A program made the translations under genes and the position numbers. DNA of 64,000 nt from Iphione sp. A-MEVVRFRX5. Taxonomy: Eukaryota. Positions 5,563 to 9,846 of this stretch are shown here, in pieces. The DNA lies in assembly GCA_976226885.1 (NCBI GenBank), contig OZ320321.1, positions 23,374,001 to 23,438,000 of the forward strand. The letters are read 5' to 3'. Position 1 is the first letter of the stretch. Every line of letters starts with the position of its first letter. Under the pieces are notes generated by a model. That model ran no database searches. It saw only the letters and a list, made by a program, of their open reading frames with translations, and was not told the origin of the DNA.

Positions 5563-8500
5563 ATGACGCTGTCAATCTTTTGGATCATTTTATTGTTCTT
5601 CTTTATTGGAAAAAGCGACGCAAAGGAATTATGCAGGCAATGTTCATGTCTTAATGGACACGTGTATTGTGTCAAAACCGAGATAGCTTTTTTCTTCACC
5701 ATAAACTATCCACACCCGAGTGTTAAGATTCTGGAGTTGGTCGATCCCCAAGTCACCGGTGTCCGCCATGAATTTATTGCGCACATTCATAAAATCTTCC
5801 CAAACTTGCTTCAACTGAAAGGACTCCCGTTCGAAAGTGAATCTTCCACAAAGAATGACGACGAGGCTTGGATAACTTCGACACTTGACACATCAAACAG
5901 AGAAAATGAAGGTCGGTCAAGTTCTGATGAGCGGAATCATGTTACAGTTTCCGAAACTGATAAACAGTTAACTAGTATGATGGTGTTGGTTCAAGATAAG
6001 AAAATCACGGAAAGTACAGATCTAGTGATTGTCGGAGTCATCTTAGGAGTGGGAATTCTTGGTATATTAGCAATTGGAGTGGTAGCTTGGATCAAACATA
6101 AGGTGCAACCACCGTGTTTAACTAGACGAAGTTTACATCCACAGCAGTCATTCTATGAACGAGCTTTCGAATGGCTTGGGAACCGTAGGTTAGTGTGTTC
6201 ATTTTTACTCCCTTGATTTTTTTTAGAGAAAAAAAAAAAAATCCCTCTAAAATTCTTTCAATCGTTAATTAAGAAAACAAATGGTAAAAAAAAAAATTCT
6301 ACTTTTGTTGCATCCTTGTCAAATCTGTGTCAGCCTAGGTTGACAAGGTGGGCTCTGAATTTTTTTTTTCTTGAATGAAGCTAACCCTAAAAGTAAAAAG
6401 TTGCTAAAACTAAATTCAAGGGGAGTGTTAGTAATTTTCTGTGGGTTTTTTTTTTAAAAAAGAATAAAATTGGAAATAGGCATATATATATTTTTGTTTT
6501 TTCCTATTCTATTTTTCAAAGAAATAGATCTGTTCCTTCAAGAGTTAACAACAGACAAACTGATGCAGTGCTTGGTGAAGTAAACAGTGAGGATGATGAG
6601 GAACCCCCTGAAACACCCAATTTATGGCAAGATACTACATTTTCTCAGAAGAGTAAACCAACAAATCGAAGCATTGGGCAAGCTCCAGATTATACACGTG
6701 GTTGTCTATCAGGAATTGATGTTCTGAAAAAACTGTTTCTATCTAAAACACAGCACGGGGAACCTTCCACATCAGGTATGGGACCAACTCCAGCACCACG
6801 TTCAGCATCTCTTCCACCTCCTCCTCTTCCAGGCCACTCAGCATTGACACCACGCCCGCGTTCAACATCACTTCCACCTCTTCCAGCCCATACATCAAAC
6901 TTGCCAGCACGAGCACATTTTCCACCACCTCCTCTTCCACCCCATTCATCATCATTGTCAGCACGAGCACGATCATCGCTTCCAGGACCCTCATCATCAT
7001 TGACACCACGTTCACGACCATCGCTTCTAGGACCCTCATCATTGTCTCCACGTCCAAGTTCAACACTTCCAGGATCCCCATCATCATTGACACCTCGTCC
7101 ACGTTCACCACTTCCAGGCACCTCATCATCATCATCGACAGCACGACCACGTTCAACGCTTCCAGTCCCCACATCTCCATATCCAGTACACCTTCATTCA
7201 CCAACACCACCAAGTTCACCTGACCCAGCACGTTCTTCACCGCCACCACGATCACCTTTCCCACAGCGTTCACCACCACCACGATCACCTTTCCCACAGC
7301 GTTCACCTGCTCCAGCACGTTCTTCACCACCACCACGATCACCTTTCCCACAGCGTTCACCTGGTCCAGCACGTTCTTCACCACCACCACGATCACCTTT
7401 CCCACAGCGTTCACCTGCTCCAGCACGTTCTTCACCACCACCACGATCACCTTTCCCACAGCGTTCACCTGGACCAGCACGTTCTTCACCAGAGCGAACG
7501 AGTCCACCATCTCCCCCTCCATCACCACGATCACCACCTCCACCAGAGCGAACGAGTCCACCACCACGTTCACCTTTCCCGCAGCGTTCACCTGGTCCAG
7601 CACGTTCTTCACCAGCACCAGCAGAGCAATCTATCCCACCACCACAGCGTTCACCTGGTCCAGCACGTTCTTCACCAGCACCAGCAGAGCGAACGAGTCC
7701 ACCACCTCCCCCTCCATCACCACGATCACCACCTCCATCACCAGAGCGAACGAGTCCACCACCTCCACCACCATCACCACGATCACCTACTCCTCCACAA
7801 CAATCTCAAACAGCATCACACTCTTCTTCTTCTCACCTATCATGTTTTTCCAGTAGAAGTCTGAAGGATGTTCTCCCAAAGAACATGCAGAACACGTCTC
7901 CCAGTCATTCTCCAACAGAATGTTCACTCACTCATATACCTACACATTCATCAGCATTGGAAAGATCATTTTCACCTGTAAACATCAGCAGCCTGAAGTC
8001 TGTTCAACCAGAAAGACAACAGAATGAGCCAGTGTTCTCCAGCAATAACCCTTTTGCTTCATTCATTAACAATGATGTTTGTCCCAACCCATCTGGCAAT
8101 GAACAGACAGCAGATGCAGTAGCAGCTAGTCTCTGCACTGTTTCCTCTCCAACCCATGACTCGTCAGCAGATGGAGAAGCAGTTTTAACAAGCAGTCCGT
8201 CGATAGATGTGAATTCTTCAACGCTGTCGCCTACTAATCCTTTTGTTCATGGCTCGTCAGCATATGCAGTAGCTGTTTTATCGGTCAGCCCAACGAGAGG
8301 TGTGGTTTCTTCAATGCTGTCACCTACTAATCCTTTTAGCCATGACTCATCAACATATGCATTAGTGGGTTTAACGACTACCCCGACGAGAGATGTGACT
8401 TCTTCAACGCTGTCGCCTACTAATCCTTTTGCTCATGTCTCATCAGCATATGCAGTAGCTGGTTTAACGAGCAGCCCAACGAGAGATGTGTCTTCTTCTT

Positions 8501-9846
8501 CTTCAACACTGTCGCCTACTAATCCTTTTGCACGTGACTCAACTATCCCCATCACCCCAACAAAAGATGACTCTTCAACACCTATCACCACCTCCACCAC
8601 CACCACCCCGACAGAGAGAGTTGAAGTTTCTTCACCCACCACCACCACCACCACCACCACCACCACCTCCACCACCACCAGAGCAATCTATCCCACCACC
8701 ACCACCACCACCACCACCACCACCCCGACAGAGAGAGTTGAAGCTTCTTCAGCCACCCCATCTTGTCTGACAACTAGAAAACCGTTTTCCACAAGCACTA
8801 ACTCAAATGTTCCAATTCCAGGAAGTGTTTGTTCCAGTTCTAGTAGCATTGAATCAACAACAGATGTGGAAACAGTTTCATCTACCACCTCCACCACCAC
8901 CCCACCGAGAGATGAGGCTTCCCTGACACAAAAGAAACCATTTGTCACAGGTTCAAACACAGTTGAAGCAATTCCAAGAAGTGTGTGTTTCAAACCTACT
9001 CCCAATCTCTCGTCAACAGAAGTGGTTCCATCTTCAAGCAACATCCCTTTTGCATCACTCAGCAAGCAACCAGAAATCATTGTCAAACTTCCTCTGAAAC
9101 TTCTAGATGGAAAATTAATGGAAAAATTCGTCAAAACAATAAACCCAGTTGTCAGACTTGACTCGACAGTGGTAGAAAAGTACTTGAAAACTTCAAAACA
9201 AACAACAGAAAAAACTAGTAACAAAGACATGAGTCAGTTAGCATGCTCTTCAGAAATACGGCAAACAGGGATTGAGTCTGATCCAGATGTGAACATTTCA
9301 CAACGAACCACACCCCCTTCTACTCCAAGACGCTCAAGCCGCTTGTCTGACAAGACCCAACATGCAACGGGGTTTGAGACTGATTCAGATGTGAACATTT
9401 CACAACGAACCACACCCCCTTCTACTCCAAGACGCTCAAGCCGCTTGTCTGTCAAGACCCAACGAGCAACGGGGTTTGACAGTGATTCAGATGTGAGCAT
9501 TTCACAACGAACCACACCCCCTTCTACTCCAAGACGCTCAAGACGCTTGTCTGTCAAGTCCCAACGAGCAACGGGGTTTGACAGTGATTCAGATGTGAGC
9601 ATTTCACAACGAACCACACCCCCTTCTACTCCAAGACGCTCAAGACGCTTGTCTGTCAAGTCCCAACGAGCAACGGGGTTTGACAGTGATTCAGATGTGA
9701 GCATTTCAAGTCGTGCCACGCCCCCTTCTACTCCAAGACGCTCAAGACGCTTAGCAAGCATGTCGAAGACAAGTCACTCATCAGATGCTTCAGCTGACAC
9801 AGCAATGGCGCCACCACCGACACCTAAACGATTCCGCAAATTGCAG
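5563..9846 (+). CDS. Type I membrane protein B (LRR-cap ectodomain, TM) predicted to splice (intron 6189-6521) onto a ~1100-aa Pro/Ser/Thr-rich repeat tail; further 3' exon unresolved
   Basis: Signal peptide MTLSIFWIILLFFFIGKSDA; CRQCSCLNGHVYC cap; TM LVIVGVILGVGILGILAIGVVAWI. AG|GTTAGT donor at 6189 (phase 2) and TTTTTCAAAG acceptor at 6521 give an in-frame join to ORF 6568-9870, which ends at a CAG|GTAATT donor (9847). Confidence 0.65.
7225..7790 (+). repeat. Coding tandem repeat, ~54-bp unit (PPPRSPFPQRSP[A/G]PARSS) plus variants
   Basis: Near-identical units read directly in the DNA and in the ORF 6568 translation. Confidence 0.9.
8221..8530 (+). repeat. Coding repeat, 93-99 bp period, each unit carrying LSPTNPF
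   Basis: AATCCTTTT (NPF) in frame at 8236, 8329, 8422 and 8521. Confidence 0.85.
9265..9753 (+). repeat. Coding tandem repeat, 102-bp/34-aa unit x ~5 (ATGFDSDSDVSISQRTTPPSTPRRSRRLSVKSQR)
   Basis: Five near-identical units visible in DNA and protein. Confidence 0.92.

Follow-up and report, generated by a model that had tools for sequence, protein, structure and literature searches.

Here we analysed 64,000 nucleotides (nt) of the genome of Iphione sp. A-MEVVRFRX5 (GenBank assembly GCA_976226885.1, contig OZ320321.1, forward-strand positions 23,374,001 to 23,438,000; this whole stretch is the window, and coordinates are given within it) and found that two open reading frames (ORFs) in a Maverick/Polinton element are very probably exons of one spliced accessory gene. 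The predicted product is a type I membrane protein of about 1,319 amino acids (aa) that comprises a signal peptide, a 72-aa leucine-rich-repeat (LRR)-like head, a membrane span and a disordered tail of about 1,140 aa. Polinton accessory genes have mostly been read as intronless ORFs, and ORF-based annotation splits this gene in two. A sequence-only reading of the window had already proposed a single spliced type I gene of more than 1,300 aa in a viral setting, and both points hold: the joined exons run for 1,317 codons without a stop, the splice sites and their phase are conserved, and the gene lies in a Maverick/Polinton. The gene, which pairs membrane topology with chromatin-type motifs, bears on how Polintons behave as viruses in animals, including their exit and host control. 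We tentatively suggest that the tail may tie host chromatin to a membrane.

Gene structure and evidence for the splice

The predicted gene comprises the following features, all on the + strand.

5345–5389, +, elements that we take to be YY1-like and initiator-like, about 200 nt before ATG 5563
5563–6188, +, coding part of exon 1, 626 nt from ATG 5563: signal peptide (5563–5622), LRR-like head (5623–5838), Ser/Thr/Glu stalk, membrane span (6022–6090) and basic juxtamembrane stretch
6189–6521, +, predicted phase-2 intron, 333 nt; alternative acceptor at 6527 in the same phase
6522–9846, +, exon 2, predicted disordered tail, 3,325 nt, 1,108 codons in an open frame
6776–6781, +, second donor, CAG/GTATGG (the slash marks the exon boundary), phase 1, overlapping ATG 6778
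9823–9846, +, basic end PKRFRKLQ, which may act as a nuclear import signal; a phase-0 donor (CAG/GTAATT) comes next, at 9847
10010–10196, +, predicted exon 3, which adds two residues before a stop and continues as 3′ untranslated sequence interrupted by more intron-like gaps

The donor at 6189 (TAG/GTTAGT) is in phase 2, and the AGs ending at 6521 and 6527 both continue that phase into the frame of the 6397–9870 ORF; the coordinates and phases given in the sequence-only reading were all correct on recheck. GC content falls from 41% in exon 1 to 27% in the intron and returns to 41–50% in exon 2. Joining donor 9847 to an acceptor at 10009 brings the total to about 1,319 aa, and a similar exon-3 start and downstream donor are found in subfamilies A, B and C (defined below). 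Past the predicted stop, the region 9847–10700 (+) contains two or three intron-like gaps, and the donor at the end of exon 3 is kept in the same three subfamilies.

Exon 1 has at least 163 matches in the 1.18-Gb genome. We took 58 of these with their flanks and sorted them by visual inspection into 14 subfamilies, denoted here by letters, at identities of about 33–100%. Splicing of exon 1 to exon 2 is very probable because of the donor phase, the frame of exon 2, coding sequence before ATG 6778 and promoter-like elements that occur only before exon 1. In 50/50 scorable loci (59 were examined; 9 had no scorable exon 1), the top donor past the membrane span is in phase 2, and a canonical GTGAGT donor itself contains the stop of the first frame in subfamilies K, M and N. 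A phase-2 AG occurs at the matching place in 13/14 subfamilies, with C, I and M read by eye. Both splice sites are kept in all 13 of the closest sister copies. One locus, L034, keeps the donor, has lost both tandem acceptors and has a stop late in the tail; it is likely to be a decaying copy.

Exon 2 ranges from 2,725 to 3,778 nt and is 1 mod 3 in 24 of the 26 copies in which both sites were found (28 examined), which bears out the expectation that repeat number varies in multiples of three. The introns of the same 26 copies are spread across the three length classes mod 3 as 10, 9 and 7. Among the closest sister copies, 33 distinct intron insertions or deletions include only 3 that are multiples of three, although many fall in homopolymer runs, where assembly noise may account for part of them; exon 2 before ATG 6778 has two, both multiples of three. 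A conserved LW(E/D/Q)DT motif lies 156 nt upstream of ATG 6778, and precedes the first ATG in 7/14 subfamilies. The YY1-like and initiator-like elements each occur at −173 to −228 in 12/14 subfamily representatives, with none in intron 1 or before ATG 6778. An acceptor-like AG before ATG 5563 was not conserved.

These findings bear on whether the two frames are separate genes, one for a membrane protein of about 218 aa and the other for a soluble nuclear protein with its own start (here ATG 6778, the first in-frame ATG of the large ORF), an arrangement that we consider very improbable. The large ORF does read like a nuclear protein, and 7/14 subfamilies have an in-frame Met somewhere between the acceptor and LWxDT. 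However, the positions of these Met codons are not shared, ATG 6778 is confined to subfamilies A and A′, the conserved coding motif lies upstream of it, the number of residues after the donor varies from 0 to 37 between copies, and the gap holds no conserved promoter-like element.

Several observations weigh against the splice. The donor scan range and the acceptor rule were fixed after a first scan, in which the top donor of subfamily E was a phase-1 GT five codons past the membrane span. The acceptor rule alone returns phase 2 in 39/50 loci and 10/14 subfamilies, and with a generic splice matrix the acceptor at 6521 does not stand out, as T-rich AGs within the intron score equally high. A stop is present in 5/24 in-frame copies, and 2/26 copies are frame-shifted. 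The Met codons before LWxDT in half of the subfamilies count on this side too. In exon 2 before ATG 6778, near copies differ by 7 non-synonymous to 1 synonymous changes, and the ratio against the more distant locus L025 is 25:7; there is no synonymous excess among close copies, and these counts are uninformative.

Exon 2 contains one other strong donor, at 6776, which had been proposed to make a short isoform. Its GT is kept in 12/12 of the closest copies and, joined to exon 3, it would reach an immediate stop and give a predicted product of about 294 aa. The GT is absent from L025 and from subfamilies B, B′ and C and is confined to subfamily A, so a short isoform does not stand as a general feature of the family. 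A skip from exon 1 to exon 3 was also considered: the frame is open in 9/10 scorable A copies and 6/6 C copies, and this skip was not adopted because the frame is closed in 7/7 B copies.

Tail composition and conserved motifs

Ser accounts for 20%, Pro for 18% and Thr for 12% of the tail, which consists largely of Ser/Pro/Thr/Arg-rich tandem units; it has no Pfam family and no usable Atlas match. Its motifs are as follows.

6622–6642, +, LWQDTTF, tryptophan-acidic-like, upstream of ATG 6778
6946–7788, +, Pro/Ser/Arg tandem arrays with periods of 33–177, the main ones multiples of three
8047–8541, +, five NPF motifs, four of them in 93-bp repeats as SPTNPF
9142–9162, +, NPVVRLD, PxVxL-type, within a conserved strand–helix block
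9279–9752, +, 102-bp repeats with five TPPSTP-RRSxRL units, an HMGN-like motif beside proline-directed kinase sites

Two motifs that were absent from the sequence-only reading are universal. LW(E/D/Q)DT is present in 14/14 subfamily representatives, with its Leu encoded by all 6 possible codons and its Thr by all 4. It holds the single Trp of exon 2, so the tryptophan-acidic motif is unpaired, and a Leu stands directly before this Trp. NPx(V/I)xL also occurs in 14/14 representatives (strict PxVxL in 13/14) and is followed by a V..Y helix-like pattern. Codons turn over synonymously in both motifs, which are conserved at the level of the protein. The PxVxL pentapeptide is a ligand of HP1, and the host genome encodes an HP1 shadow domain; among named relatives, the closest to the host HP1 come from molluscs and annelids. 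As a single PxVxL occurs in 38% of shuffled tails, only the fixed position of the motif argues for a PxVxL-type function.

The motifs that had been named earlier—poly-Pro, NPF and RRSxRL—are present, and NPF and RRSxRL exceed the level in shuffled tails (for RRSxRL, 5 copies against 0.009 expected). They are patchy or lineage-specific and hence do not form the conserved core. In a motif scan of 13 subfamilies, RRSxRL was found in 4 and (N/D)PF in 7, and high proline content is restricted to a long-tail lineage. RRSxRL arrays are specific to subfamilies A, B, B′ and C, as is the basic end, which is kept there together with the donor that follows it; in A, B and C the RRSxRL units sit in different repeat units. 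These four subfamilies form one side of a branch in the integrase tree (93/100; the root is unsure). Tails are 930–1,270 aa in the long-tail lineage and 400–650 aa in nine other subfamilies.

The short tails carry a C-terminal motif, SPxFxS(Y/F)RxIH...F...EE..N, and a KGKGKGK run after LWxDT (L043:3705–3830 and 13 other loci), which are absent from the long-tail lineage; neither matched any database entry. A likeness of this C-terminal motif to the first strand of a TIR domain was considered and dropped, as Pfam and PDB searches gave no support.

A possible membrane-anchored chromatin tether

We judge the chances of a chromatin role for the tail to be about even, because a universal PxVxL-type block is combined with lineage-specific RRSxRL arrays beside kinase sites and with a basic end. 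The more specific proposal, that the spliced protein of about 1,320 aa is a membrane-anchored tether whose tail ties host chromatin to the membrane, is tentative and falls somewhat short of even. In this scheme, the long disordered tail may carry an import signal that brings the protein to the inner nuclear membrane, a route of which we are less sure. The tail would grip nucleosomes through RRSxRL and HP1 through the PxVxL-type motif; peripheral chromatin would be rearranged in favour of replication or exit of the element, and the membrane-near tryptophan-acidic motif could couple the protein to transport.

Published systems provide parallels for some of these steps (here and below, papers are cited for the excerpts considered). 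Membrane proteins can reach the inner nuclear membrane when a long disordered linker bears an import signal (PMC4695851, PMC4569319), chromatin is a barrier to the nuclear exit of DNA viruses (PMC13244615), and RRSSRL here matches the nucleosome-binding motif RRSSRLTS of Dsup, three arginines included (PMC13347269).

Other features pull away from a tether. A location at the cell surface or in endosomes is suggested by the five NPF motifs, the tryptophan-acidic motif, the cleavable signal peptide and the LRR-like head, and chromatin tethering would be an unusual job for a viral surface-type protein. Nine short-tail subfamilies lack RRSxRL and end in their other C-terminal motif. HP1 needs less than the flanks that are conserved around PxVxL here, and a lone PxVxL is, as noted, common by chance. 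A further-reaching reading, which we think somewhat unlikely, is that a family of animal Polintoviruses encodes a spliced tether of this kind, in which an LRR-like sensor faces one side of a membrane and a kilo-residue unfolded leash holds motifs that grip HP1 and nucleosomes on the other. If this were true, a non-enveloped integrating virus would couple membranes, or a signal from outside, directly to host heterochromatin.

The main rival of the chromatin tether is a trafficking or actin scaffold resembling vaccinia A36, which would engage kinesin-1 through the tryptophan-acidic motif, EH adaptors through NPF and SH3 domains through proline, with the basic repeats serving as kinase or 14-3-3 sites; we regard it as rather unlikely. 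A36, which is integral to the membrane, combines a tryptophan-acidic motif with three NPF motifs (PMC10883800), LW(E/D/Q)DT is the most conserved motif of the tail and (N/D)PF recurs in just over half of the subfamilies scanned. Yet the tail has one Trp, as opposed to the bipartite motif of A36 (PMC10883800), and the Leu is adjacent to it, unlike SKIP LEWD, in which Leu is two before Trp (PMC6214655). Such a scaffold would also leave the expanded RRSxRL arrays and the universal PxVxL-type block unexplained.

A Notch-like surface receptor, whose tail is released by cleavage once the receptor has been taken up and then moves into the nucleus, would account for both classes of motif in one chain: NPF and the tryptophan-acidic motif would serve traffic, and the C-terminal motifs would act after release. 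The small head and Ser/Thr stalk resemble those of type I proteins that are shed, surface cleavage is known for adenovirus E3/49K (PMC13437282) and the element itself encodes a putative protease. We nevertheless think this unlikely, as no cleavage site common to all subfamilies was identified and NPF is absent from B, B′ and C, which carry RRSxRL. Finally, the splice could be real and the tail mostly a neutral expansion of repeats between a few functional motifs. The large differences in tail length, repeat units that are unrelated between subfamilies and the stops and frameshifts noted above speak for this. The frame is nonetheless kept despite large changes in length, and RRSxRL has been multiplied within different repeat units in A, B and C; we consider a largely neutral tail very improbable.

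The LRR-like head and a head-to-head partner gene

The head had been read as a small LRR ectodomain. Fold prediction and weak matches favour this label, and we call the head LRR-like, with moderate support, rather than a member of the extracellular LRR proteins, as profile and fold searches gave no significant LRR family match. In an alignment of 34 heads, C4, C7, C9 and C16 are invariant (a four-Cys N-terminal cap) and FPNL-like and VxILE-like strands are kept. An AlphaFold2 model (predicted local distance difference test (pLDDT) score of 87.7) shows a hairpin cap, further strands and one helix. Its best fold matches are GPIb-beta (PDB 3rfe; Z 5.3, root-mean-square deviation (rmsd) 3.2, 65 aligned residues) and GPIX (8wfs; Z 5.1, rmsd 3.1, 63 aligned), for which Z values under 8 are not decisive. 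Most of the top rows of this fold search were LRR proteins. No Foldseek match had an E under 0.1, Pfam LRRNT matched 8/34 heads weakly (best E 0.017), and Atlas LRR matches to the head at 0.85–0.87 serve as a lead only.

The head alignment has no conserved Asn after the strands, and the Asn ladder of LxxLxLxxN is therefore lacking; the segment from the head to the membrane span is free of Cys, so the C-terminal Cys cap is lacking too, and the 72-aa head contains no N-glycosylation sequon. In subfamilies K and M, the head is tandemly doubled (L056:1558–2019; L057:1543–1992).

This protein family has no relative in the collections searched. Exon 1 had no outside homolog at E 0.01, nor did the head profile among longer proteins, and a single match in a representative library was repetitive and evidently spurious. 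Searches of viral contigs, metagenome contigs and phage records likewise found no relative outside the host genome of this head or of that of the partner gene described below, and a capsid query gave none either.

A second gene lies head-to-head with the first.

4581–5078, −, exon 1 of the partner gene: signal peptide, LRR-like head, Ser/Thr stalk, membrane span and phase-0 donor

Its donor is at the same place in the subfamily representatives compared, and the partner is likewise predicted to be a spliced type I membrane protein. Its head is more clearly LRR-derived than that of the main gene (profile against TLR3 LRRs, E 1.7e-5); it yielded no confident fold (pLDDT 35), and the two heads align weakly (probability 13%). 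Exon 1 of the partner is 498 nt here against 726–729 nt in three sisters, owing to an in-frame loss within the Ser/Thr stalk.

The host element and its surroundings

The Maverick/Polinton that houses the gene is about 22,966 bp long, with 74-bp inverted repeats that are 100% identical, AGT-type ends and a 6-bp target duplication. The part of it in the window includes the following features.

1–15471, no strand, right two-thirds of the Maverick/Polinton, which starts 7,494 bp before the window
712–1854, +, integrase with a C-terminal chromodomain (Pfam rve E 1.7e-9, Chromo E 1.2e-7)
2428–3903, +, probable major capsid protein, assigned by size and position without a database match
3878–4366, +, adenain-like protease (Pfam Peptidase_C5 E 0.004, under the curated cut-off)
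14160–14798, −, BIR (IAP-like) accessory gene (Pfam BIR E 4.2e-15)

The gene content and ends follow the Maverick/Polinton layout (PMC8097293), with assignments of polymerase, ATPase, protease and capsid that are weaker than that of the integrase. The putative capsid ORF (491 aa, beside the protease) had no match in Pfam, NCBIfam, PHROGs or PDB sequences, and is present at 74–85% identity in 12/12 upstream stretches of sister elements. A 1,602-aa polymerase-like ORF has a motif-B-like KxxxNxxYG and matches the polymerase-like ORF of a neighbouring element (E 1.6e-18), with no Pfam polymerase match at E 0.01; this ORF (L012:4541–9346, +) also carries C2H2 fingers near its N terminus and a NADAR domain (Pfam E 5e-11) near its C terminus. 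The packaging-ATPase candidate matches Pox_A32 at E 0.003, under the curated cut-off, and has a Walker A motif. The integrase–capsid–protease block lies upstream of all 12 copies checked, so none of these is a host copy outside an element.

At 10978–14798 (−), three ORFs of no assigned family and the BIR gene recur in most sister elements at about 28–55% identity and in varying order. Immediately upstream of the element is a second Polinton-like remnant, a distant relative that retains a polymerase end, an ATPase and an integrase (L011:1–4167). Elsewhere in the window are pieces of a DDE_1 (pogo/Tigger-type) transposase (16935–18337, +), a Penelope-like reverse transcriptase in several frames with a weak GIY-YIG match (41443–45346, −) and DIRS-like ORFs that comprise Gag-like, reverse transcriptase and tyrosine-recombinase sequences (51147–55018, +).

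Comparison with known systems

Intron-bearing Maverick cargo, a type I fusogen and motif-array membrane proteins of other viruses are already known. The gene described here occupies the same accessory-region place as other Maverick/Polinton cargo, in an element with inverted repeats, a 6-bp duplication and AGT ends (PMC8097293; bioRxiv 10.1101/2022.07.12.499685). Nematode Mavericks carry intron-bearing cargo and the type I fusogen MFUS-1; that cargo is made up of proteases and kinases, and MFUS-1 pairs a short tail with a large ectodomain, the opposite of the gene here (bioRxiv 10.1101/2022.07.12.499685). Intact vertebrate Mavericks are reported to be intronless, whereas this gene is predicted to be spliced (PMC8097293; bioRxiv 10.1101/2022.07.12.499685). 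The main text of the adintovirus paper makes no mention of transmembrane, splicing or leucine (PMC8502044). A prior description of such a gene was not found in the literature searched or in the excerpts of PMC8097293, PMC8502044 and PMC11071296, a scope that covers freely available main texts.

Among viral membrane proteins, A36 is about five times shorter than the protein here and has neither an LRR-like head nor nucleosome-type repeats. The likeness between them is one of motifs: vaccinia A36 is likewise a viral integral membrane protein with a cytosolic tail of short motifs that include tryptophan-acidic and NPF motifs (PMC10883800). The adenovirus E3 glycoproteins (E3/49K, PMC13437282; RID-alpha) are type I proteins encoded in the accessory region of a related DNA virus that has no envelope. 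E3/49K combines a large glycosylated ectodomain with a 19-residue tail, in contrast to a 72-aa head and a tail of about 1,140 aa here (PMC13437282). GPIb-beta and GPIX share with the predicted head a Cys cap and very few repeats, and differ from it in that the head lacks the C-terminal Cys cap and the Asn ladder.

RRSxRL with three arginines is the point of likeness to the HMGN, Dsup and Dot5 anchors (PMC13347269) and to viral chromatin tethers such as cytomegalovirus (CMV) IE1 (PMC13244615). Those HMGN-like anchors and viral tethers are soluble nuclear proteins (PMC13347269, PMC13244615), whereas here 2–8 copies of RRSxRL stand at the end of what is predicted to be a membrane protein. We conclude that this accessory gene is real and conserved, is probably spliced and, as a member of a family that has no name as yet, represents a variant of the viral membrane motif scaffolds.

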